A DNA stretch of 40,153 nucleotides from a virus (lineage: Duplodnaviria > Heunggongvirae > Uroviricota > Caudoviricetes): the IMG/VR virus record IMGVR_UViG_3300005260_000047; one strand, written 5' to 3'. Of this stretch, positions 5,688-38,682 are shown piece by piece; positions within the stretch are counted from its first letter, which is position 1; every line of letters begins with the position of its first letter. The notes beneath the pieces are model-generated. The model made no database searches. It saw nothing but the letters and a program-made list of their open reading frames with translations, and was not told the DNA's origin. Made by a program: the position numbers and the translations under genes.

Positions 5688-6352
5688 GGGTTCTCCTGTT
5701 GGTTAATAGCGTTTTGGGCGGCGATGCGACGCGCATACGCCAATGGGGATTCGCCAGGCTGCATCGCCGGCTTGGCCGGTTGAATCGAAGCGGCCGTGAC
5801 CTTGATCACTTCCTGCATGCGCACCTTGATGTCGGGCGATGCCGGCGCAGCCAGGTCTTCCAGCGCCGCATTGATCGCGCCGGCATAGCCTTGATCGGCT
5901 GCCGCCAGTTCGCGGTCGAGCGCGGTGGCCTTATCCTTCACTGGTGACTTATTGACACCGGCGTGAAAACGCCCTGCCGGTTTCGGATCCTTCGGCAGCA
6001 GGTTCGGTGGCGTCAGGTTTGACACCCGCACGCCGAACTCTCCGGTCGTAGTCAAAGGCAGCGTCAAGACTTGCGGCGGGATGCGCGGAAAAAAATAAAG
6101 CGCCACCCCTTTTAATTGCTCTTCCTCGCGCATGCCGAGCGCCAGGCACTTTCGCATGCGGATCGCTTCATGGCAGTCACGGTAGATGTCGTGACTGCGG
6201 CCCGCCTCGAATTCGGTAATCTTGAACAGGCAGCTTGCGTAAGCGGGTGAGCGCTGGACGGTTTCGCAGCCCTTCAAATAGTAGGCATTGTCGCCGCCGG
6301 CCGACGCGCTCGGCGGGAATGCTTTGTCATGCTTGATCGGTTCATTGTTCAT
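5684..6352 (-). CDS. Hypothetical protein with Cys-containing N-terminus
   Basis: 222-aa ORF coupled to ligase by ATGA overlap. Confidence 0.7.
   Translation of the reverse strand: MNNEPIKHDKAFPPSASAGGDNAYYLKGCETVQRSPAYASCLFKITEFEAGRSHDIYRDCHEAIRMRKCLALGMREEEQLKGVALYFFPRIPPQVLTLPLTTTGEFGVRVSNLTPPNLLPKDPKPAGRFHAGVNKSPVKDKATALDRELAAADQGYAGAINAALEDLAAPASPDIKVRMQEVIKVTAASIQPAKPAMQPGESPLAYARRIAAQNAINQQENP
5934..5951 (-). promoter_or_regulatory. Motif copy, intragenic (core match only)
   Basis: + strand tccttca-ctgg-tgactta. Confidence 0.35.
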
Positions 6353-6364
6353 TTCATTCTCCTG

Positions 6365-6829
6365 TTACCAGCTTCCCCATGATGCATCGCGTTCGATTTC
6401 CGGCTCGCTTTCGACTACGACATCCTCACCTGTTGCCGCAACGATATCTTCCACATCATTGGTGAAGCGAAAATATTCCATGACCGCGTTTTGCACGGTC
6501 GGATCCTTATAATGCTTCAGCCATCCCTTTAACTTATCCTCATCGACGGGGCCACGCACGCTATGCAGCATGTAGGCGCTCGACGCATCAATGTATCTGC
6601 CGCCGTTACGCAGCTTGCGCTTTTCCACTAGGATCTTGTCACGCTCAAGCCGCAACGCCGACAGACTGCCGCGCTCGATCTTGGTTTGCCCGCCGCCGCC
6701 ATTCATTTCGTTGATCTTGCCCCACCGCTTGATCAGCATGGCAGGGCCGTTTGGCTCGTCAATCAAGACGGTTTCGTAAAACTTTGTGCCTCCATCGTGC
6801 TGGAGGTAATGTGCCTTCACATTGAACAT
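6365..6829 (-). CDS. WGR-domain-like protein
   Basis: YL...GGTKFYE.......MLIKRWGKI pattern; SD GAGG. Confidence 0.55.
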   Translation of the reverse strand: MFNVKAHYLQHDGGTKFYETVLIDEPNGPAMLIKRWGKINEMNGGGGQTKIERGSLSALRLERDKILVEKRKLRNGGRYIDASSAYMLHSVRGPVDEDKLKGWLKHYKDPTVQNAVMEYFRFTNDVEDIVAATGEDVVVESEPEIERDASWGSW

Positions 6830-6871
6830 CGCCTCTTCCCCTTGCGCACATCGCGCTTTCTCAATACCGCT

Positions 6872-6915
6872 ATGTTACTGACCCCTGTCAGGACACACAA
6901 GTCATTAATGACTTA
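6872..6915 (-). promoter_or_regulatory. Operator copy (6898-6915) overlapping -35 of TTGTGT-17-TAACAT
   Basis: + strand caagtca-ttaa-tgactta; includes the HNH stop codon. Confidence 0.7.
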
Positions 6916-7398
6916 TCCTGCACGTTTGCCTGTATTGCGTTTATTACGCGCCTGCTCCAATCTTGTCGCCCACTTACAATTGCAAGGCTCGTAATTACCG
7001 TTGTTATCCTTACGCTCGATAGTCATATCTCGACTTGGCTTATCGCCCATATCCGCCAAGAAGTTTTCAAACGATTCAAGCCAGCGATCACATACCTTTA
7101 TGCCTCGACCACCGTAATCAGGATAAGACTTGTTATTCTGATTCGTGCAGCGCTGGATCATAGACGCCCATGTATTGTATTCTGTCGTGCCATATCTTCC
7201 GTGACTCGTTGTCATCTTTTTTGCCAGCTCTGAATTTAAGCAGCCGCATGATCTTGTGTTGCCGCTTACCAGCTTTGTTGCTGCGATCGACTTTGTATTG
7301 CCACAATCGCAAACACACTCCCATCGTCCGTTTCCAAGCCATTTGCGCGCCGTTAGTCTTCCAAACTTTTTACCAGTATGGTCGTTATTTCTTGCCAT
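6913..7398 (-). CDS. Free-standing HNH homing endonuclease-like protein
   Basis: [60 protein letters not shown]; AT-rich. Confidence 0.85.
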
Positions 7399-8507
7399 TA
7401 GTAACTCTCCGCCATCAGCAGTAATTTTGCCGCTGTCGCGTTGTTAATTACCGTCGCTCGCCAATATGCTGCCCTCACAACAGACGGCGCAACTTCATTT
7501 GGATCACGCCCCTTCGGGAGAAGGGCTATGCGCGTTATAAATCCATATCCATTCAATAACTTCGCTGCCATCACCGCATCTTTAATTGCCTGTCTTTCCG
7601 CATCCCACATGAAGGTGACGCGCTTTAATCCTTTCTCGCGCAGTGCCATTAACTTACCGAGCTGGCCATCGTCGCCGATCGACAAGTGCTTGCCGAACGA
7701 GCCGACCGGAACCACATCGCGCAGCGCCATTTCCCCATCGAGCGCGATCTTGGTCGCCATCACATCGAATGCACCCTCGCCAATCACGATCGATTCGGCA
7801 CCGACCGCATTGTGGCCGTTGTAAAGATGGCTGCCGGTCGATGCAAAGCCTGGCGGGAACAGGTATTTCTTATCCGCCGCGCCGGTGATGTCGCGCCCCT
7901 GGAACGACACCAGCTCTCCGGCCAGGCCAAACACCGGAATGATGATCCGGTTGCTGTAATCCTGCCGCATCGGCCGGCCTGCGTCGTCGCGATAATCAAA
8001 CGTGCCGCGCAGGCAAAACCGCAGATTGAAGTATCCGGCGATGTCATTCGTGATCGAACGGTTTTCCAGATATTTCAGGTTGCGGCCATTGATCGGCAGC
8101 GCCAGCGAATTTGGCAGCTTTAACTCGTTGACATTCAAGTTGACCGCGGCGCTGACTTTCTTCGGCGGCCGCCAGCCCTGCTCTCTCGCCACCTGCTTGA
8201 TGTGATCGATCGCCTCGCGATGCGATACATTCAAGTAGCTGGAAATGAACTTCCAGCGGTTGAACTTGGTTTCGCAATCGCCGTGAAAGCAATTCCCCAG
8301 GCCGGTATCGGCATTGATATAGACCTTATAGTTGGAATTGCCGCAGCAGGGGCATTCTTTCACGTTAAGCTGCTTGCCGCGCGCGCCGCGCGTGACCCTG
8401 TAGCGGACACCCTCGCGATCCATCCACGCCTCCATGTCGAGCGTGGACAGTGCTTCGTCCAGCTCGCTTGAAGCGTCACGCCGGCTGATGTGGATGGAAG
8501 TCGCCAT
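7398..8507 (-). CDS. DNA primase (Zn finger plus TOPRIM)
   Basis: CPCC...CFHGDC Zn ribbon, FQGRDI, GEGAFD, MWDAE, GRDPNE. Confidence 0.88.
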
Positions 8508-8518
8508 TGCTGTATCTA

Positions 8519-8797
8519 TCAGGCTTTGTTTCTCGCATGGCCGCCAACGCGATGCTTGACGCGGCGGTCGCCCATCAGATCGCGCAAATCGCGAATGCTC
8601 AGCGCCGAAACTTCATGCATGCGGATCAGCATTGATGCGCCGACCGGCAGCCTGCCGTGACGGATTTTGCTAATCACCGGCGGAGCAACTTCCAGCGCGC
8701 GCGACAGGGCGGCGTCGTTTTTCAAGCGCAGCCTGTTCAGCAGGGAATCCAGCAGGTTGTTCGGATCATATTGGACTTCTTGAGTAGCGTTATTCAT
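8519..8797 (-). CDS. Small HTH/XRE-like DNA-binding protein
   Basis: LKNDAALSRALEVAPPVISKIRHGRLPVGASMLIRMHE helix-turn-helix. Confidence 0.75.
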   Translation of the reverse strand: MNNATQEVQYDPNNLLDSLLNRLRLKNDAALSRALEVAPPVISKIRHGRLPVGASMLIRMHEVSALSIRDLRDLMGDRRVKHRVGGHARNKA

Positions 8798-8842: not shown

Positions 8843-9040
8843 TCAGGTCGCCATCGCGTAGATTTCTTCGTCAGCCCATTCTTCTGGCGTCATATCTTCG
8901 AATGAATTTTCCTCTTCGCATACATCGTAAGAGGCGCATGCCAGCATTGTTGAAAATTTCTCTTCAAAGCCGAGCCTTACCATGTGCGCGACGAACTGCC
9001 CAATCCACTGTTCTTTTGTAAGCTGTTCTTTAGTCATCAT
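8843..9040 (-). CDS. Hypothetical acidic protein, 65 aa
   Basis: Overlaps helicase stop; co-oriented. Confidence 0.55.
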   Translation of the reverse strand: MMTKEQLTKEQWIGQFVAHMVRLGFEEKFSTMLACASYDVCEEENSFEDMTPEEWADEEIYAMAT

Positions 9041-10527
9041 TCGATCCTCACAATGCTTTCAATGAACTTCATCTTGGCCAGGTTTTGCTTGATGAATACG
9101 GTAAAGCCGCCCTCCTGATTGCGCGATGCGGCGAAATACAGCCGCGCTTCGCCGTTGGCGCGCTCTTCATCGGTGATATTGATCGAAATCATCAAGTCCA
9201 CCGTCCGCACCTTGTTGAAGTCGTCAGCGACATGCTCTGCCTTCATCACGGTCGATTTGACGCCTTCGCGATTACCCTGCGTCGCGGTCAACACCGCCAC
9301 GTTCTCGCGGGAAGCAATAGCGCGCAGTCCAAGATAAATATTCTTGCTGTTCTCGATAGAGTCATTCGTGTGGTGATCCGGCGCCATGATGTCGGCATAG
9401 TCCACGATGACCAGATCGAACTTGATCGCCGGCCGCACCGTGCCATCTGCGCGCATCATCGGTGACTTATAGCGCTCGATGACCGCCTGGAGCATGGCGG
9501 GCGTCAGGGTGCCGGACGGGTATTCATGGATCTTCAATTGACCTGAGCGCGGCGCCACCGCCTTGATCTTGCCCTCCACATCGTTGATCCGGTCAACGAT
9601 GGTCTTGATTTCAGTGTCCGAGATCGACGCATCGAAGCGGTCTGCCAGGATGGAGGTAGACACTTCGCAGCTTGCATACAGCACGTTAAAGCCGGCTAAC
9701 GACGCAGCTCTGGCAAATCCAATCAGTGCGGTCGTCTTACCCGCTTTCGGCCCGCCCAAGATCGCATACAGCTCTTTCCTACCCCAACCCTTGTGATACA
9801 GGATGTCATCGAGCTTTGGATAGCCGGTCGTGATGCCCTTTAACGTGCCGATGCCGAGCTTCTTGTCCTTGCGCTGCTGGCTGCGCTCTTCGACGCGCTC
9901 CCAATAGTCGTATTCCTCGCCGCCGTCATTCATGCCGACGTTGACGGCCATCTTGACCGCTTCAAAAATCTTGTCGAACTGCTTGCGCTCCAACCAATCC
10001 ACCGAATTCAAGATGGTTTGCTGCATGGTCTGGTGGCGCGCAAAGGTCGCAACCTTTTCCGCAAAGCTGTCGCCATTGGACAGATCGGTATGACCGCCGT
10101 AGATCTCCCTTAAAGCGTCTTTCACCAGCGGCATCATGTCGTCGCGGATCACCTTGGACGCCTTCGCGTCCTTGATCAGTGATTTCATCGTGGCGGTGTT
10201 TGGCACCGAACGGTATTTGTCGTAAAAATTCAGCGACAGATTAACCAGCGCCGCCTCGCCGATGTTCTCGAAATATTCCGGCTTGATCAGATGAGAAACC
10301 TTGCGCAGAAATTCCAAGTCGCGCACACAATGCGCTGCAATGTGCGTTTGAAACTCCGCATCGAACTCGAATTGTTCGCCGCCAAGCGTCACTTCCGGCG
10401 AAGCCGCGGTCGTCGCGTGAACGGTTGCGGCGACGGCCGGCAAGCCAGGCACGATGGTCGCTCCCATAAATGACGCGCCAACCGTTTCAGTCAGCGACTT
10501 CTCGATGGCTTCGACTGCGTCGGTCAT
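9037..10527 (-). CDS. dnaB: DnaB-like replicative helicase
   Basis: Walker A GGPKAGKTT, LVIVDYADIM, TATQGNR, SRN arginine finger. Confidence 0.9.
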   Translation of the reverse strand: MTDAVEAIEKSLTETVGASFMGATIVPGLPAVAATVHATTAASPEVTLGGEQFEFDAEFQTHIAAHCVRDLEFLRKVSHLIKPEYFENIGEAALVNLSLNFYDKYRSVPNTATMKSLIKDAKASKVIRDDMMPLVKDALREIYGGHTDLSNGDSFAEKVATFARHQTMQQTILNSVDWLERKQFDKIFEAVKMAVNVGMNDGGEEYDYWERVEERSQQRKDKKLGIGTLKGITTGYPKLDDILYHKGWGRKELYAILGGPKAGKTTALIGFARAASLAGFNVLYASCEVSTSILADRFDASISDTEIKTIVDRINDVEGKIKAVAPRSGQLKIHEYPSGTLTPAMLQAVIERYKSPMMRADGTVRPAIKFDLVIVDYADIMAPDHHTNDSIENSKNIYLGLRAIASRENVAVLTATQGNREGVKSTVMKAEHVADDFNKVRTVDLMISINITDEERANGEARLYFAASRNQEGGFTVFIKQNLAKMKFIESIVRIE

Positions 10528-10976
10528 ACCGCGTGTCCTTCTTCAGTCTTGGAATCCGGCACTTCCGGACGCGGGCTAATGGCCGAGAATTCGGAAATGT
10601 CATGCTTGAAAATGACGCGGTCGCGGCGCAACAGGTCGCCTTCTGGGCGTGCTGGATTTGGCACGAAGGTGCGAACGCTGACCGTGAATTTGTCGGAATG
10701 AATGACGGCGCCGGTGATAATCGTGCCATCGCACTTCTCGACCTCGATTTGCGCACCAGATGTCTCCAACGCTTTCAGGAAGGCTTCATGTCCCTTCAAA
10801 GGGCCGGTAACGCCCTTTCTCGGCGTTTGCGGCCTGGTGCGGCTGACATGCAGGGTGCGGCGCGGCGATGAAAGGTTTTCGCCGCCCTCTTGCGAGGCCA
10901 GTCGGCGCGCCTCTTCAATCTGCTGTTCGCGGACTTCGCAATCCGGCAGTTGCGCGACTGTATTGCTTTTAAACAT
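10524..10976 (-). CDS. Hfq/Sm-fold protein with N-terminal extension (start at ATG 10976)
   Basis: HEAFLKAL...DGTIITGAVIHSDKFTVSV...VIFKHDISEF parallels Hfq QDPFLNAL...NGIKLQGQIESFDQFVILL...MVYKHAIST; SD AAGGAG. Confidence 0.7.
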   Translation of the reverse strand: MFKSNTVAQLPDCEVREQQIEEARRLASQEGGENLSSPRRTLHVSRTRPQTPRKGVTGPLKGHEAFLKALETSGAQIEVEKCDGTIITGAVIHSDKFTVSVRTFVPNPARPEGDLLRRDRVIFKHDISEFSAISPRPEVPDSKTEEGHAV

Positions 10977-11026
10977 TTGGAAATCTCCTTGATGAAACGG
11001 ATGCACGGTTTGCATCGAACACAACG

Positions 11027-11048
11027 ATTATAGCTCAGCGATGACTTA
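11027..11048 (-). promoter_or_regulatory. Operator copy (11031-11048) abutting -10 TATAAT, upstream of the Hfq-like/helicase genes
   Basis: + strand tagctca-gcga-tgactta. Confidence 0.7.
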
Positions 11049-11051: not shown

Positions 11052-11744
11052 TTACAGGCTGATCTCGATCGCACTCTCAATTGCCGACAGCGGGCAGCGG
11101 GCCAATGCCGCCTCGATGCGCAGCGCACCATATACATAAAGCGCAGATTGCAGCGCAAATTTTGGATGCGCGCGCTGCATGATTGCCGCCAACAAGTAGT
11201 CTTCGTAGGCGAGCTGGTCTGCCGCGCCGACGAACCGCTCAGCCGTATAGCGCGGATCCACCGCAAACTGAATCTTGGCGCGGCACTCCATCGCCCATGC
11301 GTTTGCCACATCAACGATCAGCTCGGCGTTCGACGCAATGTGCGCGGGGCGCGGCGGTTGACGCCAGCCATGCGCAATGCACCAATCCATCGCTTTGCGC
11401 ATGAAAAAGTCGTAACGAATACCCAACTCGTCAATTCTTTGCCGCAGCTTCCAGAACGATTGCTTTTCGCGGCTGTTCATGAAGTCCTTACCTTTGAAGC
11501 CCACCATGAACCGCTTGCCACGATCGAAGCACTGCCCCACGAAGTCGCCGTAGCTGCGGTTGTAATAATGCACACACAGGTAAGTCGCCATTGCCGGATG
11601 CAGCGCCCGATAGTCGAACCATTTAGACGCATACAGTTTGGTCTCAACTGCCAGGATCCGGCGATCGATATTTGCGATCGCCAGCACTTCACACTCCGCG
11701 AAGGTTAATGTCTGCCCGAAGAAGGCGCCGTAGCATTCAATCAT
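11052..11744 (-). CDS. Conserved phage protein upstream of helicase (start at ATG 11744), function unknown
   Basis: SD GAGAGGA; YASKWFDY, FWKLRQ..D.LGI.YDFF motifs. Confidence 0.7.
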   Translation of the reverse strand: MIECYGAFFGQTLTFAECEVLAIANIDRRILAVETKLYASKWFDYRALHPAMATYLCVHYYNRSYGDFVGQCFDRGKRFMVGFKGKDFMNSREKQSFWKLRQRIDELGIRYDFFMRKAMDWCIAHGWRQPPRPAHIASNAELIVDVANAWAMECRAKIQFAVDPRYTAERFVGAADQLAYEDYLLAAIMQRAHPKFALQSALYVYGALRIEAALARCPLSAIESAIEISL

Positions 11745-11860
11745 CTTGGGTGTTCCTCTCGTTCCCTGAAATACTTCATCACTCAATACATTTGAATGAT
11801 AGTTATGTTTTATAGAAGGGAGCTGGCGGCCCCAAGTCCGCCCCAAGCCCCCAAGTTACA

Positions 11861-12666: not shown

Positions 12667-12688
12667 AATATAACTCAGCAATGACTTA
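12667..12688 (-). promoter_or_regulatory. Operator copy (12671-12688) abutting -10 TATATT, upstream of phoH
   Basis: + strand taactca-gcaa-tgactta. Confidence 0.7.
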
Positions 12689-14674: not shown

Positions 14675-14931
14675 TCCGTCACCTCCTTGATTGCGTCCTG
14701 CCCCGTCTTTGGATCTTTCAATGCCGACTTTTCGCCAAACCAGAAGCCGAGGATCATGGCGTTCATGGGGCCGACGGCCGTCATATAGTCCACAACCTTG
14801 AGCTTTCCACTCAATACCGCCCAGGCCAGCAGGAGGTTGTAGATTGTGGCGATGAAAAAAGTCAGGTATGGCCGCACCATTTTGTTCAGCGCCAGGCAGA
14901 GTTGGCAGGCGCCATTGAAAAAGTCTTTCAT
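14671..14931 (-). CDS. Holin (Holin_3TMs-like)
   Basis: 86 aa, two clear hydrophobic helices, ILGFWFG motif, directly after endolysin. Confidence 0.7.
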   Translation of the reverse strand: MKDFFNGACQLCLALNKMVRPYLTFFIATIYNLLLAWAVLSGKLKVVDYMTAVGPMNAMILGFWFGEKSALKDPKTGQDAIKEVTE

Positions 14932-15963: not shown

Positions 15964-16007
15964 AGTGTAGCAGGGGAGTCGTCTAAAATCAAGTCATCGG
16001 TGACTTA
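15964..16007 (-). promoter_or_regulatory. Operator copy (15990-16007) overlapping -35 of TTGATT-17-TACACT (TGn extended), lysis cassette
   Basis: + strand caagtca-tcgg-tgactta. Confidence 0.75.
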
Positions 16008-16895: not shown

Positions 16896-16913
16896 TTCGT
16901 CACTTGTGACTTA
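16896..16913 (-). promoter_or_regulatory. Operator copy
   Basis: + strand ttcgtca-cttg-tgactta; includes the hydroxylase stop codon. Confidence 0.6.
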
Positions 16914-28380: not shown

Positions 28381-28385
28381 GCCTT

Positions 28386-28415
28386 ATGATAACTCATCGG
28401 TGACTTATGTGTAAA
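28386..28415 (-). promoter_or_regulatory. Operator copy (28390-28407) in the spacer of TTTACA-18-TATCAT
   Basis: + strand taactca-tcgg-tgactta; includes the tape measure stop codon. Confidence 0.7.
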
Positions 28416-31400: not shown

Positions 31401-32571
31401 CCTGCGTTTCGACAGCACGCTTTGCGGCGGCCACCTCATCTGCTGCGGCCTGCACCGACGCATTGCGCTTGGCGATAATGGACAGACGCACGCTGTTGAG
31501 ACTATCGGTGATCTTTTTACCGGCGCCGGCGGCTTGGCCGACAGCCCAATACATTACCCATACCTTGCCGGCCGCGATGATTGTGTCCGACAGCTCGACG
31601 ATCTTTTTCGTAATATTGACGATTGACACCAGTGCGTCATTCAAGCCGCGTCCGATAGAGCGCGCAAGCGAAGCTGAAGAATCGCCATTGAACGCCGCCA
31701 GCAGGTCTCCCACTGCTTTCTTAGCGCCGTCAAATAAACCCTGATTGCCGATATCGAGCTTGAACAGTTCCCACTTGGTCTTTAACCGCTCCAGCGTGCC
31801 AACCCATGTATCCATCATTTGCGCCGCGGCGCCGGCATTGTCAATGCTCATAACGATGAGCATCTTCTCCATAGCGGATTTCGCCTCTACCGTTCCTTTC
31901 GACACGGCCTTGGTCAACTCCGCCATAGTCATATGCATGCCGTCCGCCATTGCCTGCATCGCTGTCGGCACTGCCTCGCCCAATTGCTGACGCAACTCCT
32001 CCATCGACACGACACCCTTGCCGCCCATCTGCTGCATGGCGATCGCCGCGCGTTTCAAGGATTCGGAATTGCCGCCAAAGCGCGCAACCGAGTCCACCAA
32101 CGCCTTCAAGGAGCCATTGACTGGATCGATGCCGCCCGTTTTCAGCTTGACGAAGGCATCACCAAGTGCCTTAATCTCAAACGGCGTGTTCTGCGCCATA
32201 TTGAACAGGAACTTGACGTTGGATGCAGCTTCGAGTTTTCTCCTTGCGTCATCTGTTTCTTTAGACAGCCCCTCCATCAGCTTGCCCAGGCGCTCGATCT
32301 CGCCGGAAGTCTTCAGGATGGCCAGCGGCAGCGACAAGAAAATGTCGCGCACGTCCATCAGGGCAAAGCGCGCCATGCCCATCGTCGTGACGACCTGGTG
32401 CGCCTTCGCCCCAAAGGAGGTAAGGTGGTTTTCTACGTTCTGGATGGACTTGGCCGTCGAGGCCAGGTTTTGCTCAAGCTGCTTGATGGCGCCACTGGCG
32501 TCGCGGATCCCGACCTTAAAGCCGCCATCGTCCAGAGTGAGAACGACCTTAATTTCCTTGCCAAGCGCCAT
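28405..32571 (-). CDS. Tape measure protein
   Basis: 1388 aa, tape-measure N-domain (QMGGKGVVSMEELRQQLGE), coiled coils, C-terminal ASGGI...GEG..EAYVPL. Confidence 0.93.
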   Translation of the reverse strand: MALGKEIKVVLTLDDGGFKVGIRDASGAIKQLEQNLASTAKSIQNVENHLTSFGAKAHQVVTTMGMARFALMDVRDIFLSLPLAILKTSGEIERLGKLMEGLSKETDDARRKLEAASNVKFLFNMAQNTPFEIKALGDAFVKLKTGGIDPVNGSLKALVDSVARFGGNSESLKRAAIAMQQMGGKGVVSMEELRQQLGEAVPTAMQAMADGMHMTMAELTKAVSKGTVEAKSAMEKMLIVMSIDNAGAAAQMMDTWVGTLERLKTKWELFKLDIGNQGLFDGAKKAVGDLLAAFNGDSSASLARSIGRGLNDALVSIVNITKKIVELSDTIIAAGKVWVMYWAVGQAAGAGKKITDSLNSVRLSIIAKRNASVQAAADEVAAAKRAVETQVAQFNERIRRNEEAITAEKARVEAEKALNAQELEEKIKTDNAMIAAHERRAREMLAIETRIRSQAMALELQAEQLARSKKAGSGADSRRLMIDVNGLKANADLLKEEREALINNAIALERNNKAEKLRSELTAISTNATNATVTSLTQQNNGLKQVVAQYEAQAKAITASNKAMGLMGAAASTAIGWLKNIVFSMNGLVIAITAAVWAWDYFSSKAKKAAEDAKIALQMSELVERGQASKQHLESVNNDIGAKTDRVHANEKLIEVLTPDAKAGDKGAKKRIEELKEQNKQLLSAIQTEQRNFADGAKQVFRKEAELYASDLKAEAERSADLAMVPFKTQRAKLKEQFEKLGKPTDAQKKAYLKDVGEVDENALKAKKNALISAQRKYEELIAAGKITQEQKEAYQKLVEQLQIDVSNVDSGVAHLAAEPTLLANNKKGPATKPTDAILSRLHSEQLGLLHAKQTLESMKSDASEVGLLREQARQEVALLLENDTHTKQAHSKAQEAELVEAITNKKVLLNAAAELQALRSKLPKLSDEVEDLEARAANGNTNKPQARAENAVVAMLRGIATHSAEARAALAQLEPEVKKMTELAARKDVATFTIENEKRLKDLRVQSIVNTRERLQAEGEIELNDIKQRYDEQIALAMKNNADVGKILSMRAEEIDLHNKKVQRSMMTPIEKMAEQWKDGYQQINDATATWSNGFLGELGKTLTGAKSSWRNFLASMLTDILNMQLKQSFGQKITEAFGGIGGKIGGLLGMMAPNATAQPAAQTVGEGTTQAAAGMAGQSAQAMFMESMRKMAGTANVANTGLTDMATQGVEQATMGLVQQAVQTGEASVAQTAASATLDWLSASAQMAAAALDQLAMQQAASSVASAFANGGIMSSMGSMPLKKYASGGIANSPQLALFGEGSMNEAYVPLPDGRSIPVTMKVDGNGGQSDGGQNVVISITVNQGGTTSEKASGDASSYKQMADRVRAVVQDELVKQKRPGGALYT

Positions 32572-32585
32572 TTATCAACCTCAAG

Positions 32586-32939
32586 TCACAAAAGTTTCGA
32601 CAGCTCCTTCAATTCAGCGAAGCCCGCCTCGTCACGCTCTTCCTGAATGTATGGCCGTCCTTGAGACTCGCCGCTTACCTTCACGATCGTGCCGGCTTCC
32701 ACGATCAAGCGTTGCCGGAGTTGCTGCGCTGCCTCCCCCATAGCGGTGGCCGCTACCGAGATCGACAGGCTGCGCATGTCCTTCTGGGCTTGAATCCGAT
32801 CGATGTTCTCGTTCATCAGCCAGAAGGTCTTGATCGGCAGTGTCATGACTGCCGGATAGCTCTGCGCATAAAAGTGCATCACCCGACAGAAGAAGAAACC
32901 AAAGTCGATTTCCTCGACCGCCGGCTTGCTTACTTTCCC
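32586..32939 (-). CDS. Tail assembly chaperone gpT-like segment, reached by -1 frameshift
   Basis: Open -1 frame from slippery GGGAAAG (32933-32939) to TGA at 32586. Confidence 0.75.
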   Translation of the reverse strand, partial: GKVSKPAVEEIDFGFFFCRVMHFYAQSYPAVMTLPIKTFWLMNENIDRIQAQKDMRSLSISVAATAMGEAAQQLRQRLIVEAGTIVKVSGESQGRPYIQEERDEAGFAELKELSKLL

Positions 32940-33268
32940 GCTTCGCCCGCCTCTGCTTCCGTCAGCTTCTCAGTGGCTTCAGCCAAGTCGTCACCGCGCA
33001 CGAAGGCGGCGATCTTGCCGAGGTTTTCGAGCGAGTAGCTGCCCAACGCCTCGCGCGGCACGCCAGGCACGGCGCGCATGATCATCTGCACCGTCGCTTC
33101 GATCTGGTCCGCCAGGCTGTCGGATTTCTCCAGGCGCTCCGCCGCGCGGGTAGTCTCGATGAAGTTATCCACTGTCATTTTTGGAATGTCGTAGGACTTC
33201 CCCTTGATGACCAGCTCACGCCCCATTGAGGCTGCGGATAGCGCGTCGAGATTGAGAACCTTTGCCAT
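32930..33268 (-). CDS. Tail assembly chaperone gpG-like
   Basis: Between tube and tape measure genes; SD AAGGAG; ends GCG GGA AAG TAA. Confidence 0.8.
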   Translation of the reverse strand: MAKVLNLDALSAASMGRELVIKGKSYDIPKMTVDNFIETTRAAERLEKSDSLADQIEATVQMIMRAVPGVPREALGSYSLENLGKIAAFVRGDDLAEATEKLTEAEAGEAGK

Positions 33269-33282
33269 GTGCTGCTCCTTGT

Positions 33283-33312
33283 AAAACAGGCCCGCTTATT
33301 GGCAGCGGGCCT
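33283..33312 (-). terminator. Intrinsic terminator-like hairpin after the major tail gene
   Basis: Stem AGGCCCGCT/AGCGGGCCT, 7-nt loop, followed by GTTTT. Confidence 0.65.
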
Positions 33313-33331
33313 TGTGGTTGATTTATTGGTT

Positions 33332-33359
33332 ATTGTAACTCAGTCGTGACTTATTTCAA
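33332..33359 (-). promoter_or_regulatory. Operator copy (33336-33353) in the spacer of TTGAAA-16-TACAAT
   Basis: + strand taactca-gtcg-tgactta. Confidence 0.75.
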
Positions 33360-34228
33360 GCGCCAACCGTAAAAAGCTTGCCGCTTGCGTCCGGATAGCC
33401 GGTGAACTCCACGTCATAGACGCGCTCGTCTTCCAGCTTGTAGGCGAACTTCAATGCGCCTGGGGTTGCAGCCAGCGGAATGACGAAGTCTTCCGACTTG
33501 TCCGTGTCCGGCTTGGAGATGGGGTGCAAGCGCAATTCGCGCGCCAACGAGAGCAAGTCCGTGCCAATGCCGGTCGAAACAGTGACCGACTTGGAGGTCG
33601 GATCGGCTCCGCCAGTCAGGGTAGCGCCGGACATGGTGACATCAGCGCCGGCAGTGCCAGTTACCAGGGTGAACCCGTTGCCTGCGACGGACGGCTCGCC
33701 GGCATCGCCGTAAACCAGGCGGTTGCCGTAAGTGACGGTCACGACGCTGGCGGTGGCGCTGTAGGTTGCTTCGGCGATGGCCGGTGTCGTGGACTTGTTC
33801 AGCATAGCTGCCAGGTTGGCTGCCGTTTCGTCGGTAGTTGCACCAATCAGAACTTCATCAGCCGCGCCACTCAGGGCCGACTTGAAAGTCACATTCACGC
33901 CGTTGACGACAATCGTGTTGCCAGTGATCGGGTTGGTGGCGATCGTGATCGAGCCATTAGCGACAGTGCCGCCGACGGTCGTCATCACGGCGCCAGGCAT
34001 AATGGCGACCATGTTTTCGATGGTGGTTTCGGCCAGCGGAGCCTTGCAGCTCACATCGCGGCCCATCAGGTATTCATTGACCGTGGTCTTGCCGAACTGA
34101 TCCACTTGAGTCTTGTGGGTCTCGGTCTTGACTTCGACTTCGACGCCGCCCTTGGTGTAGCCGAGATCCACGCCAGCGTAGACCATCTTGCACACGCCAA
34201 GCTTGACGTTTTTCGTGCTGGATTTCAT
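33356..34228 (-). CDS. Major tail (tube) protein with internal Ala/Thr/Gly-rich domain
   Basis: VKLGVC...DLGYTKGGVEVEV.TETHK..VDQFG; C-terminal DVEFTGYPD. Confidence 0.8.
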   Translation of the reverse strand: MKSSTKNVKLGVCKMVYAGVDLGYTKGGVEVEVKTETHKTQVDQFGKTTVNEYLMGRDVSCKAPLAETTIENMVAIMPGAVMTTVGGTVANGSITIATNPITGNTIVVNGVNVTFKSALSGAADEVLIGATTDETAANLAAMLNKSTTPAIAEATYSATASVVTVTYGNRLVYGDAGEPSVAGNGFTLVTGTAGADVTMSGATLTGGADPTSKSVTVSTGIGTDLLSLARELRLHPISKPDTDKSEDFVIPLAATPGALKFAYKLEDERVYDVEFTGYPDASGKLFTVGA

Positions 34229-34251
34229 TCAAAACTCCTTTGCAAAGAGAG

Positions 34252-34273
34252 AAATTAAGTCATTAATGACTTA
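34252..34273 (-). promoter_or_regulatory. Operator copy (34256-34273), perfect 18-bp palindrome, upstream of the major tail gene
   Basis: taagtcattaatgactta; -10-like TAATTT abutting, and TGG-TATAGT 3 nt upstream. Confidence 0.75.
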
Positions 34274-34309
34274 GCGACTATACCACAAAACAGCCACTTT
34301 TCCTAGCAG

Positions 34310-34795
34310 TTACAATCCCAATTCGTCAAGCACATTTCGCAGCCTTTGGTCGAGACCCTTTTCGATCTCGGCTGCGGCGCGATCCAGAAAGCCGCCCCCG
34401 ACCTCGATGCCGCTGCGCGCCTGCTTGCTTTGCGATTTCGGCCCCAACTGCATGAAGCCATACGGCGTCAAATGTTCATGAATCTCGTAGGCGTAGTCGC
34501 CCACCGTCTTACCTGGCCGTTCGGGGATCGGCATATTCATGTCGATATACACTTCGATTTCAGTGCGTGCAAAGCGGCCATACTCATCGCGGATCCGACC
34601 TAGCTCGGTGGGCGAAATCTTGATCGCTTTCTCCAGGTTGCCTTCATCGACCGGCGCCATTGCGCGCGCCAAGCGCATGGTGTCTTGCGCCGCCTTGTAA
34701 AGTGCCGACACCACCCTCTTCTTGCCTTTTGAATCCAGGCTGATCAGCATTTCCTCTACGCTGCGCACCCCTGTGACTTCCAGCCCCACGATCAA
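34310..34795 (-). CDS. Neck/tail completion protein (HK97 gp10-like)
   Basis: ARAMAPVDEGNL, YAYEIHE, GFLDRA motifs. Confidence 0.7.
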   Translation of the reverse strand: MIVGLEVTGVRSVEEMLISLDSKGKKRVVSALYKAAQDTMRLARAMAPVDEGNLEKAIKISPTELGRIRDEYGRFARTEIEVYIDMNMPIPERPGKTVGDYAYEIHEHLTPYGFMQLGPKSQSKQARSGIEVGGGFLDRAAAEIEKGLDQRLRNVLDELGL

Positions 34796-35172
34796 GCCTC
34801 CGTAAAGCTTGCTTCGAAATCGACTGCGAACTCATACAGATTGCCATCCGACAGCGGGAACGATACGGGCTTGGTTTTTGGCCGGCAGAAATTGAAACGC
34901 ATCGTGTCGGCTGTCTGATTCGTCAGCGTCAGTGTCGTCACCACATTGCCGATCAGGGTATCTGCCGCCACATAGTCGCGCCCGCGCACGATCAGCCGAA
35001 ACTCGCTGCGGTAATAGCCTGGCAGCTCATAATCGATTGGCGTGCCTTGCAACGGGCTGCGCAACAGAATGCCGGATTCGACTTCGGCCGGCAGCATGTT
35101 TAAAAACAGGGTATCGCCCTTGACGCCAAGTCCGGCACTTTCGATCAGGTTAGCCAATGGCATCAGGTTCAT
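34792..35172 (-). CDS. Tail terminator/minor capsid-like protein
   Basis: ATGA coupling; F.LIVRGRDY..A motif; position before the tube gene. Confidence 0.6.
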   Translation of the reverse strand: MNLMPLANLIESAGLGVKGDTLFLNMLPAEVESGILLRSPLQGTPIDYELPGYYRSEFRLIVRGRDYVAADTLIGNVVTTLTLTNQTADTMRFNFCRPKTKPVSFPLSDGNLYEFAVDFEASFTEA

Positions 35173-35516
35173 TTCTCGCTCCACATCATTGCATGGATCT
35201 CGACATGATCGAGGCGACCGGCGGCGTCATGACGCGGGAAACGCCCCGACACCTTGAATTTCGCCTCTGCGATTTCCACGATATCGTCAATCTTGACTTG
35301 CGTATTCGGGCGCAGCAGCAGCACGCAATCGGCATGCAATTCGCGCGCATTGCCACGCGAAGCCGACGAGTCGGCGCGCACACTGGTCTTGGTATTGGTG
35401 ATCAGCAGCTTGACCACCGAGCATTGCTCCGACACATACGCGCCAGGCTTGGGCTGTCCATACACGTCCTTGCCGCCGGACAATTGAATGCGGCAACGCT
35501 GATTCGGCCTAAACAT
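35169..35516 (-). CDS. Head closure/head-tail adaptor-like protein
   Basis: DVYGQP...SVRADSSASRG...KIDDIVEI..FKV; position. Confidence 0.6.
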   Translation of the reverse strand: MFRPNQRCRIQLSGGKDVYGQPKPGAYVSEQCSVVKLLITNTKTSVRADSSASRGNARELHADCVLLLRPNTQVKIDDIVEIAEAKFKVSGRFPRHDAAGRLDHVEIHAMMWSEK

Positions 35517-36193
35517 GAGTCAGATACGCGGTGGCGTTAGGGTGGAAAACAGACTTGCGCACGTCGGCCAAGCTCGGCAGCGCCTTGTCTGCACCAGACA
35601 GCGAGACCCTCAACCCGCAATACGGATGATTCGGATCGTCATAAGTCACTTGCGCGACATCAGATTGCAAGCCCAATGCGCGCGCTTGTGTGTCGATAAA
35701 GGACTGGTAAGCAAAATCGCGCCCCAGCAGCGCAACCAGCTTGGAGGAATCCCACAACCGGCCGGCCGCATCTACGCTTTTCAATTCCGGCGCCGCCAGC
35801 CTTTGCTGAAGCAGGGAGCCGATCGCCCCCCATCGGACGGGTGAACAAGGTTTTCAAGCCCAGGCCGCCGCCAGCCAAGCGATTGGTCAGCTCCCTCGCA
35901 TTGGTTAGCGCAACAGCACGCAGGGAAGACTGCAATTCACGCATGCCGCCCGCAATATCAACGCCATCGCCCAAGTCGCTTGCCCAACCTGCAATCATGT
36001 TGTCGGCGCTCTGAGCGAATTGCATCACATGGGTGCGCGCTGCGCTTTTGAACTGTTCGGCAAAAAAAGGCGGTGCGGGCGTGCCTGCGGCGGATTGAAT
36101 CGCCAGATAGCGGCCAATCAGCGCCATTGCAAAGCTGTCGTAAAGGCTCGACAAGTCCGCCTTGAACCGATCCACTTGTGTCAGGCCGATCAT
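35509..36193 (-). pseudogene. Head/neck-module gene split by a +1 G in a G6 run (35826-35831)
   Basis: 685 nt; removing one G joins MIGLTQVDRF...PMG to AIGSLLQQRLAAPELKSVDAAGRLWD...FHPNATAYLTHV. Confidence 0.75.
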
Positions 36194-37035
36194 GCGCGCC
36201 CCACTCGCTTGGCAAAGCTGACGAAATACGACAGATAAGACAGCGCGCGCCGGCTGCAAGGCAATTGCAGCGGTTTGCTGCTGCGGAACATTTGACGGCT
36301 TTCACCCACCACGTCCTGCACCAGCCCCGCATTGCGCGCGGCTTCGACCGAGCCGGCATTACCGAGAATGGCATCAGCTTCAGCGATCTGCGCTTTTTTC
36401 AAGGCGTCCAGAAAGCGGGTTGGCAGTTTGACGAACTGCTCCGGACGCAGCAATTCCAGGTTGCCGGAGAATAAAAACAAATCGCTCAAGCCGACATAGT
36501 TGCTGTCGTAGCGACCTTCGGGAATATAGTTCAAACTATCCTGCCCCCAATTGACGTTCGAATTCAATGGCGCAAACGACAGTTGGACAATATGGGCGCG
36601 CGCATCGATCAGGGCGGCCAGGCGCGTGGCGCGGTCGGCGCGCTCCCATGCATCGATATTAGCCAGCCCAAGCGCGGTAAATTCGGCCTGTGTGTAGCTT
36701 TGAAACGAATTCACGCCGACAACCAAGGGGTCGGCAGTCTCGATCACGTAAGACGCCATCAGCACGACTTGATTGCCGCCGATCGTGCAGTACAGTTCTA
36801 CCGAGCGCAGCCCGCGCACCATGCCGGTAGCCAGCGTATTCGACGCGGCCGGCACTGGCACTGCCGCCTCTCCCGCATTCGCGGCAAAGGTGGCCAGCGC
36901 GGTGCGGGCGACGATCTCCACCTCGTTTTCATCGGTGACGCGATAATCGATCGCCGATACGCTCAGGGGATTGCCGGCCGTATCGACTAACGGCACCCGC
37001 AGCGTGACATCCGTGCCTTGCAGGTAGCTATCCAT
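36190..37035 (-). CDS. Head-tail connector/adaptor-like protein
   Basis: VVGVNSFQSY..A...LIDAR...ALKKAQIAEADAIL...VGES motif; follows capsid genes. Confidence 0.6.
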   Translation of the reverse strand: MDSYLQGTDVTLRVPLVDTAGNPLSVSAIDYRVTDENEVEIVARTALATFAANAGEAAVPVPAASNTLATGMVRGLRSVELYCTIGGNQVVLMASYVIETADPLVVGVNSFQSYTQAEFTALGLANIDAWERADRATRLAALIDARAHIVQLSFAPLNSNVNWGQDSLNYIPEGRYDSNYVGLSDLFLFSGNLELLRPEQFVKLPTRFLDALKKAQIAEADAILGNAGSVEAARNAGLVQDVVGESRQMFRSSKPLQLPCSRRALSYLSYFVSFAKRVGRA

Positions 37036-37038
37036 TCA

Positions 37039-37494
37039 TTACGCCTCGATCCGTGGCCCGCGCAGAATTGCGGTGATCAATTCCTTGATCGAGTTGCCCT
37101 TGATGCCAAGCGGCTCGGCGATTTCGCGCAAACCCTTGATTCCTTTTTTGTCAGCAATCTCGGCCAACTCCGCTTCGGTATAGAAGGACACTGCTTCGGC
37201 AGGTGCGGCGGGTGCGCGTTCGGCAATCGCGCCGGCTTGTCGCGCCTGCTCGGCAATGGCCTGGTCGGCGTTTTGCTCGGCCGGCAAGTCGCCCACTGTC
37301 GTGTGCGCATGGTCGAGGATCGATTGCGTCACCGATGCCGTGTTGCCGTTTTCCCACTCGCACAAGAATTGGGCGGCGATGCGCACCGCATCGATCGCCT
37401 TGACATCACCCACCGTCAGGCCGTTTTCAAAGAACACGGTTCCCATTTGGCCGGTGAATGTTTCAAATCCAGGTTGAGTCAAGCGCAGTTTCAT
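37039..37494 (-). CDS. Head-associated protein with a C-terminal small helical (Rho-N/HeH-like) motif
   Basis: SD AAAGGA; GIKGLREIAEPLGIKGNSIKELITAIL. Confidence 0.6.
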   Translation of the reverse strand: MKLRLTQPGFETFTGQMGTVFFENGLTVGDVKAIDAVRIAAQFLCEWENGNTASVTQSILDHAHTTVGDLPAEQNADQAIAEQARQAGAIAERAPAAPAEAVSFYTEAELAEIADKKGIKGLREIAEPLGIKGNSIKELITAILRGPRIEA

Positions 37495-37516
37495 TTTTCG
37501 TCCTTTCAGATATGAC

Positions 37517-37542
37517 AAAGGCGGGCTTTTCAGCCCGCCTTT
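37517..37542 (-). terminator. GC-rich hairpin after the major capsid gene
   Basis: AAAGGCGGGCT-GAAA-AGCCCGCCTTT on the minus strand. Confidence 0.7.
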
Positions 37543-37543
37543 C

Positions 37544-37572
37544 ATTCTAAGTCACTTATGACTTATCTACAA
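37544..37572 (-). promoter_or_regulatory. Operator copy (37548-37565) in the spacer of TTGTAG-17-TAGAAT
   Basis: + strand taagtca-ctta-tgactta. Confidence 0.75.
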
Positions 37573-37575
37573 GCC

Positions 37576-38508
37576 TTAGATATTGGTCACGCCTTGCAGA
37601 CCGGCGATCGAACGGGTGGACTTGAGCGCCAGGCCGGAATACCACTTCAGCCGGATGCGGATCGCGTCCTTGTTCTGCACCGTGCCGATATTCTCGACCA
37701 CGATGCCGGCATTGTCGCCGCCATACAGGCCGTGCAAGCCATCGGCTTCGTTCAGACGCAGCGCATACACTGAGCAGGTATTGGGGTTGGTGCCTGCCGC
37801 CTCGTTACCAGCCAGGAACTCGTTCATGATGACCGGAATGCCATTGTGGGTCAGCATCGGGCGGCCAAAGTTTTCGAGCTGCTGCATCACGGCGTCAGTG
37901 CCGTAGGTAGCGCGCAACAGGGCGCGGAAGGCGCGGATCGTACCACGACGCATGACGATCACGTCGGCGCCGTTCGGCAAAGCGTCGCACAGTTCGTCCA
38001 GCATGGTCAGGGTCAGCGCGTTGCCGTTTGCACCGGCGCTAACGATTTGCGAACCGCCAACCGTTGCAGCGTAGGCTTGGGCGTCAGCCAACAGTTTTGG
38101 CAAGCCGTCGAACACTTTCGGGTTTGCGGTCGAGTCGCCGGTAGCCAGCGCTTTGTGGAATTCACGCGCGACCGTCTTGGCCTTCTTAGCGATTTGCACC
38201 GCCATCTGGTCATTGGTGTCGCTCATGGTTTGAGCCAGGAATTTATCCACGTCCACGTCACCTGCCAGAATGCGCAGCTTGGCCACGACTTCCTGGAAAG
38301 TCGCAGACGATTCATTGACGGGATCATTCGGGTCGAGCCAGTCGGCACCACCCAAGGTTTTTTCGCGGTTATAGACATATGCCTTGCCTTCGGTCTTGAC
38401 GAACGGCAGAACGGCAAACATGTCATCGCGGTCGATGATTTCATCGATTACGCCGGAAATGAGCTGGTTATTGCTCAGATTTTCGGCTTCAGTTCGCAAC
38501 AGAGGCAT
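37576..38508 (-). CDS. Major capsid protein
   Basis: MPLL..EAE.LSNN.L..GVID, YVYNREKTLG, GDVDVDKF, R.RLKWYSGLALKST; SD AAGGA; follows the scaffold gene. Confidence 0.88.
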   Translation of the reverse strand: MPLLRTEAENLSNNQLISGVIDEIIDRDDMFAVLPFVKTEGKAYVYNREKTLGGADWLDPNDPVNESSATFQEVVAKLRILAGDVDVDKFLAQTMSDTNDQMAVQIAKKAKTVAREFHKALATGDSTANPKVFDGLPKLLADAQAYAATVGGSQIVSAGANGNALTLTMLDELCDALPNGADVIVMRRGTIRAFRALLRATYGTDAVMQQLENFGRPMLTHNGIPVIMNEFLAGNEAAGTNPNTCSVYALRLNEADGLHGLYGGDNAGIVVENIGTVQNKDAIRIRLKWYSGLALKSTRSIAGLQGVTNI

Positions 38509-38544
38509 TTCGAATCCTTTTCAAAAACAATTTAAAAGGAGCCG

Positions 38545-38640
38545 GTCTCGCCTGGTCGCATCAGAGGTGACTTAGGCAATCCCGCTCATGGTTAAAGCGT
38601 TCTCGGAGCCTAAGTCGCTCTAGTTCACCGATGACGAGAC
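38545..38640 (-). other. Long structured leader of the capsid gene
   Basis: Nested complementarity: GTCTCG/CGAGAC, TAGAG/CTCTG, GACTTAGGC/GCCTAAGTC, TCC/GGA, CGCT/AGCG. Confidence 0.6.
38557..38574 (-). promoter_or_regulatory. Motif copy embedded in the capsid leader hairpin
   Basis: + strand cgcatca-gagg-tgactta. Confidence 0.45.
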
Positions 38641-38682
38641 AATACCGCATTTTGGCGGTTTTGTCAAGTCACCAGTGACTTA
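38639..38682 (-). promoter_or_regulatory. Operator copy (38665-38682) overlapping -35 of TTGACA-17-TATTGT, capsid promoter
   Basis: + strand caagtca-ccag-tgactta. Confidence 0.8.

Follow-up and report, generated by a model that had tools for sequence, protein, structure and literature searches.

The window, the whole 40,153-nt stretch of DNA analysed here, contains replication, lysis, tail and head genes, all encoded on the minus strand. The motif TAAGTCANNNNTGA, with the core TAAGTCA-N4-TGA, is present at 16 distinct places (19 raw matches on both strands, in which 3 perfect palindromes are counted twice), against a mean of 0.03 and a maximum of 1 in shuffled sequences. The original prediction had listed 15 of these sites, and every start coordinate is correct as the plus-strand start of an 18-mer, but the copy at 9452-9469 within a DnaB-like gene had been missed. 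The perfect left half lies on the minus strand, as do the genes, in 16/16 sites; 14 of the 16 are intergenic, the exceptions being 5934 and 9452; and at three sites the TAA of the motif is the stop codon of the upstream gene (28405-28407, 16911-16913 and 6913-6915). The shared orientation, the fourteen copies at gene junctions and the reuse of upstream stop codons were thus described correctly. In the following list, registers give the position of the site centre in a predicted promoter.

38665-38682, minus strand: candidate operator TAAGTCACTGGTGACTTG, register -41.5; the predicted promoter of the major capsid gene, TTGACA-17-TATTGT (38667-38639, predicted start about 38632), has a -35 whose first three bases are the last three of the site
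38557-38574, minus strand: operator-like site TAAGTCACCTCTGATGCG in the predicted capsid 5' leader, at about +58, without a promoter of its own
37548-37565, minus strand: perfect palindrome, register -19.5, within TTGTAG-17-TAGAAT; flanked by the capsid stop codon and a G+C-rich hairpin
34256-34273, minus strand: perfect palindrome overlapping the predicted start, directly downstream of an extended -10, TGgTATAGT; upstream of the major tail gene (33356-34228)
33336-33353, minus strand: candidate operator, register -19.5, filling the TTGAAA-16-TACAAT spacer; located after the major tail gene and before a terminator-like hairpin
28390-28407, minus strand: candidate operator, register -19.5, filling the TTTACA-18-TATCAT spacer; its TAA serves as the tape-measure stop codon, with a minor tail gene downstream
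22370-22387, minus strand: candidate operator, register -19.5, filling the TTGCAC-17-TACAAT spacer; preceded by the J-like central tail fibre gene
21874-21891, minus strand: perfect palindrome filling a 23-nt intergenic gap, without a convincing promoter
20808-20825, minus strand: candidate operator lying across the start predicted for GTTACT-17-TATAAT; upstream of a tail fibre gene (19885-20793)
16896-16913, minus strand: operator-like site; its TAA is the stop of gene 16911-17540, and the upstream promoter match is weak
15990-16007, minus strand: candidate operator, register -41.5, TTGATT-17-TACACT; upstream of the lysis block (endolysin 14928-15644)
12671-12688, minus strand: candidate operator, register -19.5, in the spacer of TTGTTC-18-TATATT; upstream of a PhoH-like gene (11861-12631)
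11031-11048, minus strand: candidate operator, register -19.5, with a perfect -10 TATAAT from motif position 17; upstream of gene 10524-11024 and the DnaB-like helicase
9452-9469, minus strand: intragenic copy inside the DnaB-like gene (9037-10527), without a promoter
6898-6915, minus strand: candidate operator, register -41.5, TTGTGT-17-TAACAT; its TAA is the stop of gene 6913-7398; upstream of a WGR-domain gene and ligase block
5934-5951, minus strand: intragenic copy inside gene 5684-6352, without a promoter
592-641, no strand assigned: attR, a 50-bp direct repeat formed by the 3' part of tRNA-Cys, with its second copy at the prophage left end

With one mismatch allowed, just two places are added (1613 and 35287), about the chance level, which makes the motif family a sharp one. 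All 16 sites have a pyrimidine at position 8 and 12/16 have an A at position -1; the full-site consensus of 18 bases is the palindrome (A)TAAGTCAY-NN-RTGACTTA. On the same contig, the 8.4 kb past the upper end of the window hold 3 further copies and the left end of the prophage another 4, making 23 copies over approximately 65 kb of the contig. Given that attR marks the right end of the integrated prophage, which is 111 kb long, all copies lie inside the prophage. The same restriction is seen in a related lysogen, Massilia sp. TN1-12 (6.3 Mb), in which 42/42 motif matches fall on one 112,962-bp phage-plasmid contig and the other approximately 6.2 Mb searched contain none, so that the motif is absent from host DNA there and the equal frequency in host DNA that would have spoken against the original prediction is not seen.

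Predicted sigma-70-type promoters contain the sites in two fixed registers, centred at -41.5 and -19.5. In the first, the last three bases of the site are the TTG of the -35 hexamer; in the second, the site fills the -35/-10 spacer and its final TA starts the -10 hexamer. A few copies instead overlap the predicted transcription start. For the 19 sites scored on the contig, 13 exceed the 95th percentile of the background promoter score and count as predicted promoters, 4 lie at -41.5 and 7 at -19.5, and 4-6 have no predicted promoter over background. An independent consensus scan of 27000-40153 returned three promoter-like places on the gene strand, all of them motif sites. Whole genomes of relatives behave similarly, with 7 sites at -41.5 and 8 at -19.5 in one (G1), 8 and 8 in another (G3), and about 40% of sites without a predicted promoter over background. 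The relatives' sites that end in TGACTTG read TTGACA-17-(TG)n-TAnnnT: among 68 distinct sites, many of which are orthologous copies, positions 39, 40 and 44 are T, A and T in 65/68 each, ACA is favoured at positions 19-21, and 50/68 sites have G at position 37. The arrangement at the capsid promoter site 38665 is kept in many relatives, in which a second operator often covers the predicted start of this promoter, and one rightward promoter in relatives bears two operators, one per register. The expected link between motif and predicted promoters is present, at fixed registers. The -19.5 promoters at 37548 and 33336 would fire directly into a hairpin, which is an odd arrangement.

The flanks bear on whether the motif might act in RNA, as a 7-bp hairpin with a tetraloop for processing, stability or translational control between cistrons. 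Perfect copies could fold in this way, and the sites occupy gaps between cistrons, near start codons and on the strand that is transcribed. However, the right arm changes from copy to copy (TGAAGGA, TGATGCG, TGAGCTA) with no compensating change in the left arm, which is invariant, a full stem is possible in just 6/16 copies, no site has an Rfam match, and what is conserved in the flanks is promoter hexamers with fixed spacing on the DNA. We regard a role in RNA as extremely improbable.

The -41.5 register could also be that of an activator or a dual regulator, in which case the motif would coordinate lytic expression instead of silencing it. Class II activators such as CRP and FNR sit at -41.5, and lambda cI activates PRM similarly. 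The -41.5 centre with its three-base -35 overlap has this geometry, and sites precede early and late gene blocks alike. Nevertheless, the -41.5 promoters have a near-consensus -35 and often an extended -10 and should need no activator, and sites are just as numerous within the -35/-10 spacer or over the predicted start, positions from which a bound protein usually represses. Activation is also at odds with expression in the lysogenic state of the homologue, in the Escherichia coli phage Cyrano, of the candidate regulator described below (PMC9928086), and on balance it is very unlikely.

Operators built into directional promoters that all point the same way are enough to give a single orientation, and the promoter-proximal half-site is in addition compromised by the -35 or -10 hexamer that it overlaps. 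Hence, the shared orientation reported earlier is real but results from the promoters and not from an intrinsic asymmetry in site function. Promoter occlusion cannot account for every copy, however, given that some are promoter-less and two are intragenic. Site 38557 lies 108 bp from site 38665 and has a promoter score of 1.7, under the background median, and the score of 8.0 at site 21874 is below the 95th percentile of background. Together with 16896 and the intragenic copies 9452 and 5934, these sites make it conceivable that the motif, or its promoter-less subset, marks stoperator-like roadblocks that halt elongating RNA polymerase in an orientation-dependent manner, as the L5 repressor does. 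Intergenic placement, one orientation with transcription and the three stop-codon overlaps fit, and these are the properties by which stoperators have been described (PMC9283540). However, most sites occupy exact promoter registers that alone explain the orientation, some sites in relatives have the perfect half on the opposite side, and a palindromic site with a predicted symmetric dimer differs from L5-type repressors, which are monomers on asymmetric sites (PMC9283540). We therefore consider roadblocks quite unlikely as the function of the motif.

Repression at promoters is consistent with the variation among relatives. Complete relatives have 16-32 forward motif matches each, with 16-30 in a set of three; in others the layout is kept while the outer half-site bases are changed to A[CT]AGTCA or TCAGTCA. 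These variants sit at the same places, and three complete genomes have A[CT]AGTCA as their top-ranking palindrome. The GTCA-N4-TGAC core of the consensus is fixed and the outer three bases vary (TAA, A[CT]A or TCA).

None of the binders suggested within the window (8519-8797, 745-1332 and 11052-11846) has a DNA-binding domain in Pfam. The original prediction had also allowed for a regulator outside the window, and there, on the same contig, lies the best candidate, P0015, an XRE/Cro-type protein of approximately 150 aa whose gene adjoins the integrase and is divergent from a 66-aa gene. The protein is found in 8/8 complete genomes tested as well as on the window's own contig. At the level of sequence, the outer half-site changes track its recognition helix, which is KPN[IV]ITM[IL]KQGKTK or a close variant in TAAGTCA elements, KPNMLSMIRQGHSK or RPNVLSMIxNGRVK in A[CT]AGTCA elements, and RPNVLSMIKSGETR in TCAGTCA elements. 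Shared descent may explain part of this covariation, and the resolution of the capsid and HTH trees is too poor to tell the two apart.

In an AlphaFold model, the N-terminal domain of the XRE protein has a five-helix HTH fold that can be superposed on P22 c2 and on 434 Cro, the latter with an rmsd of 1.7 A across 62 columns at 31% identity. A PDB profile search gave 8bny, 'Immunity repressor protein', at E 0.002, and the Pfam HTH_19 and HTH_3 matches are below gathering thresholds. An S24 autocleavage domain was found neither in a Pfam scan of a 147-aa orthologue nor in the precomputed Pfam list for P0015, and the C-terminal domain is without a confident structural match. The protein is predicted to form a symmetric dimer through a C-terminal interface: the homodimer model reaches an ipSAE of 0.35 against 0.00 for the best control, a mark reached by 21/30 proteins solved as pairs and 0/23 solved as single chains, with runs agreeing in at least 77% of contacts and a pLDDT of 76. 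The Cyrano homologue, CYRAN_45, is annotated as a putative repressor, has the same synteny and is transcribed in the lysogen at 10-fold over prophage background (PMC9928086).

We infer from these features that P0015 is the most likely binder, and that it represses rather than activates. The operators could nonetheless belong to another phage or host factor, for instance a ParB-like protein in the style of KorB of RK2, with the XRE protein not binding them. The element encodes two ParB_N proteins, both upstream of the terminase, a ParB-like gene has one perfect palindrome at its end, and the helix covariation could be phylogenetic. However, ParB-like similarity is about equal within (68-95%) and between (69-73%) operator groups, lytic relatives such as nickie and BUCTxx99 have ParB-like genes and lack the motif, the host DNA searched has zero copies, and a search of five TAAGTCA genomes did not find the 228-aa HTH_3 neighbour. 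A binder other than the XRE protein is thus unlikely.

Taken together, the motif probably represents the dispersed operators of a phage-encoded dimeric HTH repressor that acts on many promoters. One regulator with operators ahead of replication, lysis, tail and head blocks, as first proposed, holds as the best explanation, now with a candidate protein. The operators would sit within ordinary sigma-70-type promoters heading successive gene blocks, and a repressor bound at either register or at the start would bar host RNA polymerase from the promoter. In this way a single repressor could hold most of the 111-kb prophage in the off state, and all gene blocks would be derepressed at once when it is lost.

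Dispersed-operator control is a known style but has not previously been described for the SSU5-like group. The P1 C1 repressor has approximately 22 operators scattered over the genome (PMC8546580). As here, P1 is a large temperate phage of the phage-plasmid type with one repressor and operators mostly at promoters of separate blocks, but its operators are asymmetric and 17 bp long (ATTGCTCTAATAAATTT) whereas the site here is a palindrome, and the candidate here is a predicted XRE/Cro-type HTH dimer, not a C1-family protein. P1 late genes also use the activator Lpa; in contrast, the head and tail genes here have predicted sigma-70-type promoters bearing the operator. Dispersed palindromic operators on a plasmid-like replicon are shared with the KorA/KorB system of RK2 (IncP), in which some operators lie just upstream of the -35, others over the -10, and many operons are coordinated. 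KorB is a ParB-family protein able to act at a distance, whereas the candidate here is XRE-type, and similarity among the ParB-like proteins does not follow operator type.

Lambdoid Cro and CI proteins (434 Cro and repressor, P22 c2) have the same N-terminal fold as the candidate, and the likeness extends to a palindromic operator with one helical turn between half-site centres, a gene position beside the integrase and divergent from a small gene, and operator specificity that differs among relatives in immunity-group fashion. However, the operators of lambdoid repressors are clustered in two or three regions instead of being dispersed over approximately 30 promoters, and the candidate differs from the lambda cI type in having no detected S24 domain. 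Cluster A mycobacteriophages (L5, TipsytheTRex) have more than 20 genome-wide sites at promoters and in short intergenic gaps, transcription-oriented and sometimes overlapping stop codons (PMC9283540). The sites here share the orientation, the intergenic placement and the stop-codon overlaps, but those of cluster A are asymmetric 13-bp sequences to which a two-domain monomer binds, and most of them act on elongation, unlike a palindrome for a predicted dimer that lies mostly in promoter registers. Phages T1 and Stevie carry an asymmetric 22-bp intergenic repeat in 16-20 transcription-oriented copies (PMC4319613), which differs in sequence from the motif here and occurs in lytic phages.

To our knowledge, lysis-lysogeny control in SSU5-like elements is essentially unstudied. 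Among Proteobacteria, large prophages and phage-plasmids of this kind are common, and enterobacterial ones often carry resistance genes (PMC9600943). The result is a testable map in which approximately 30 predicted promoters share one operator, placed in either of two registers, together with a named candidate repressor and natural specificity variants that predict which elements would be mutually immune. The motif also eases promoter annotation in SSU5-like genomes and, if confirmed, the variants would form a compact set of orthogonal repressor-operator pairs. A broader reading, which we hold to be doubtful, is that the system is a readable immunity code of a widespread clade of SSU5-like prophages and phage-plasmids, each approximately 110 kb long, and that promoter-less copies serve as elongation roadblocks or looping partners of the symmetric dimer. 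The outer three bases would then be set by a few residues at or just after the recognition helix (...TMIKQGKTK, ...SMIRQGHSK, ...SMIKSGETR), and the promoter-less copies would have a stoperator-like function not known outside actinobacteriophages. Among the promoter-less copies are the capsid-leader site, the intragenic DnaB copy and a copy conserved inside an AAA_5 gene.

Pattern search of the window located 16 separate copies of TAAGTCA-N4-TGA (19 hits, with three perfect palindromes scoring on both strands), compared with a mean of 0.03 expected by chance in dinucleotide-preserving shuffles of the window. All 15 coordinates listed in the original prediction were correct, and its count of 15 overlooked one further copy (9452-9469, within a DnaB-like gene). 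The placement it described also holds: the perfect left half lies on the minus strand in every copy, as do all credible genes, 14 copies are in intergenic gaps, and at 28407, 16913 and 6915 the TAA of the motif serves as the upstream gene's stop codon. Permitting one mismatch added just two places in the window, which is about chance level. Constraint extends to flanking and inner positions, namely -1 (A), 8 (pyrimidine) and 17-18 (T-A). In a blind count across eight related complete genomes, the motif word was the top 7-N4-7 palindrome in every carrier genome. Forward-strand hits number 16 to 30 per genome in three complete relatives, and the motif occurs in most of 80 capsid-linked loci spanning 42 to 66% G+C. 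The motif is specific to the phage in Massilia sp. TN1-12 (6.3 Mb), in which 42 of 42 hits are on the phage-plasmid contig and none elsewhere; equal frequency in host DNA, raised as a counter-indication, was not seen, given that the Massilia host contigs are without the motif. Two copies, 38557-38574 and 38665-38682, both precede the capsid gene; their spacing of 108 bp, approximately ten helical turns, would let bound dimers form a loop. A promoter-less intragenic copy, TAAGTCACTGGTGATTAA, has a conserved position within an AAA_5 (MoxR-like) gene in three genomes: L192 450-467, on the same contig as the window, and 79674 and 20599 in the complete relatives G1 and G3, respectively.

Predicted promoters occupy discrete positions relative to the motif. 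Promoter registers were analyzed on 323 distinct motif sites pooled from relatives. Among the 68 sites ending in TGACTTG, T39, A40 and T44 each occur in 65, so that positions 39-44 of the motif read T-A-n-n-n-T almost without exception, with G37 in 50 sites and A-C-A at 19-21; these sites include many orthologous copies of few promoters, and their independence is overstated. They read as putative promoters with TTGACA, a 17-nt spacer and often an extended -10, with the site centred 41.5 bp before the expected start. For 19 sites on the window's contig, the highest-scoring sigma-70 match no more than 50 nt away was compared with random positions, and 13 sites scored above the 95th percentile. 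With positions relative to predicted promoters quantised in this way, another counter-indication, a motif unrelated to promoters, was likewise not seen.

Motif sites by position relative to the predicted promoter (sigma-70 scoring)
38682, 16007, 6915 and one site upstream of the terminase genes: register -41.5, four sites
37565, 33353, 28407, 22387, 12688, 11048 and one site before the portal gene: register -19.5, seven sites
34273 (after TGgTATAGT), 20825 (after TATAAT) and, weaker, 16913 and 21891: just downstream of the -10, two to four sites
38574, 9469, 5951 and one site in the ParB-like region: no promoter found

At the -19.5 sites the -35 element (TTGACA, TTGAAA, TTGCAC, TTTACA, TTGTAG or TTGTTC) abuts the motif, and the -10 begins at motif position 17. 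Counted from the first base of the site, transcript starts are predicted ~50 nt downstream for register -41.5 and ~28 nt downstream for register -19.5. Both registers recur genome-wide in relatives, with seven sites at -41.5 and eight at -19.5 in G1 and eight in each register in G3; around 40% of motif sites in whole-genome relatives have no promoter match (gene strands in the 61% G+C relatives come from a GC3-based caller). A strict consensus promoter scan of 27000-40153 gave three places on the gene strand, all three at motif sites. The major capsid gene and the major tail gene are each followed by an operator-promoter and then, directly downstream of it, a G+C-rich hairpin (37510-37545 and 33275-33310, minus strand), with the predicted transcript expected to start at the hairpin or slightly ahead of it; these hairpins may be 3' ends of the abundant upstream mRNAs, 5' stabilisers of the downstream mRNAs, or both. 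The predicted capsid mRNA has a leader whose opening ~30 nt (CGGTGA(A/C)CTAGAGCGACTTAGGC..., ~38600-38632, minus strand) are conserved at the same place in relatives (loci L003-L088), even where the operator type differs, which suggests that this sequence has a function of its own, at the RNA level or in protein binding.

The sites share one orientation because every promoter runs in the direction of the genes, and the degenerate half is the promoter-proximal one because it doubles as the TTG of the -35 or the TA of the -10. At a few sites in relatives the perfect half is on the opposite side, and hence the asymmetry comes from the promoters; the recognition site itself is truly palindromic. 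A stoperator-like roadblock, possible for promoter-less copies, is unnecessary for explaining the orientation and agrees poorly with the symmetry of the site and the predicted dimer (L5 type: PMC9283540). Action of the palindrome as an RNA hairpin is unlikely, given that the left arm is constant, the right arm varies without compensation and Rfam gave nothing at motif sites. For a protein-bound operator, site positions make repression likelier than activation. The -41.5 promoters have a good -35 and -10 and would be expected to be active without a helper, and the -19.5 and start-overlapping sites lie where occlusion is classic. One rightward promoter in G1 and G3 has two operators, one per register, and a second operator copy spans the predicted start of the capsid promoter in many relatives. 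An activator role at -41.5 is conceivable.

In some relatives TAAGTCA is missing, and A[CT]AGTCA-N4-TGACT[GA]T takes its position ahead of the capsid promoter and is also scattered genome-wide; others have TCAGTCA or unrelated palindromes. An XRE-type protein of ~150 aa was found in all eight complete genomes examined, its gene divergent from one of 63-66 aa and beside integrase and cobT/AAA_5 genes. Its predicted recognition helix and following loop follow the operator type.

Helix and loop of the XRE-type protein, by operator type
KPN[IV]ITM[IL]KQGKTK or close variants: operator TAAGTCA, >20 loci
KPNMLSMIRQGHSK or RPNVLSMIxNGRVK: operator A[CT]AGTCA
RPNVLSMIKSGETR: operator TCAGTCA

The helix residues that distinguish the groups are T/S, K/R and K/H/E. 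In TAAGTCA genomes the helix is nearly invariant while the whole proteins drop to ~50% identity, but capsid and HTH trees are poorly resolved and shared descent could underlie the helix-operator pattern. The motif might instead be bound by ParB-like proteins; their similarity, however, is independent of operator type, and lytic relatives have such proteins and lack the motif. An XRE gene adjacent to trfA in G1 and G3 proved to be a lineage-specific paralogue with a helix unrelated to operator type, and the 147-aa orthologue was therefore taken as the candidate instead. Searches of five TAAGTCA genomes did not recover the 228-aa HTH_3 protein whose gene neighbours that of the integrase, and the binders originally proposed within the window (8519-8797, 745-1332 and 11052-11846) drew no DNA-binding Pfam hit.

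P0015, the family member on the window's contig (outside the window) and candidate repressor, has the helix KPNIITMLKQGKTK; its Massilia orthologue is encoded at L104:15651-16094, minus strand. Imperfect operator copies are present at the promoters of P0015 and the divergent small gene, and a full copy in register -41.5 lies ahead of the excisionase-like gene. In the structure model the N-terminal domain is an HTH of the 434 Cro/P22 c2 type; Foldseek with the candidate protein gave nothing at E <= 0.001, with weak matches for the HTH domain (E 3e-3 to 2e-2) and none for the C-terminal domain. Structure modelling supports dimerisation through the C-terminal domain, with a homodimer ipSAE of 0.35 versus 0.00 for the best control (pLDDT 76; runs share at least 77% of contacts); among proteins of solved structure, 21 of 30 pairs but 0 of 23 single chains attain this ipSAE mark. 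In the Escherichia coli phage-plasmid Cyrano, the homologue CYRAN_45 has the same gene order and is annotated as a putative repressor; its transcription in the lysogen is reported to be 10-fold over the prophage background, and ciprofloxacin induces Cyrano (PMC9928086).

The analogy drawn with P1 C1, which has ~22 dispersed operators (PMC8546580), is apt: the logic of the proposed regulon matches P1 C1 and the L5 family (PMC9283540), and both the candidate protein and the operator are of the lambdoid Cro/CI repressor type. A literature search (motif string; SSU5 with repressor or operator) found no published description of the motif or regulon. On sequence evidence, the motif sites make a well-supported case for a known kind of control, putatively extended here to another element.

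The window's capsid gene lies on a soil-metagenome contig of 260 kb. Integrase and excisionase-like genes at the left end adjoin tRNA-Cys, tRNA-Gly, pgsA and uvrC, chromosomal genes lie past the window's low-coordinate end, and the two ends share a 50-bp direct repeat.

Attachment sites (3' part of tRNA-Cys)
Window 592-641: attR
L192 7084-7133: attL

Together these show that the element is a prophage of ~111.4 kb integrated in tRNA-Cys, with its right end within the window. Window 1-591 is host DNA with tRNA-Leu(taa) at 433-522, followed by IS21 IstB fragments outside the window. The structural proteins are akin to the SSU5/nickie group (siphoviruses and phage-plasmids, roughly 105-115 kb), and the nearest relatives are ~110-kb IMG/VR contigs and, in Massilia sp. 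TN1-12, a contig of 112,962 bp; nucleotide searches with the window against phage and plasmid collections gave nothing useful. G1 and G3 have a TrfA-type replication initiator with the paralogous XRE gene beside a double operator (Massilia contig L101:2195-3702), whereas the integrated prophage has the extra HTH_3 gene adjoining the integrase and excisionase-like genes (L192 4491-6907); the two gene sets may be different lifestyle modules carried by a single phage backbone. Across the whole window, the heptamer GCTGGTG (E. coli Chi core) occurs 25 times on the coding strand versus 4 on the other, a skew that could reflect codon usage or a Chi-like orientation bias.
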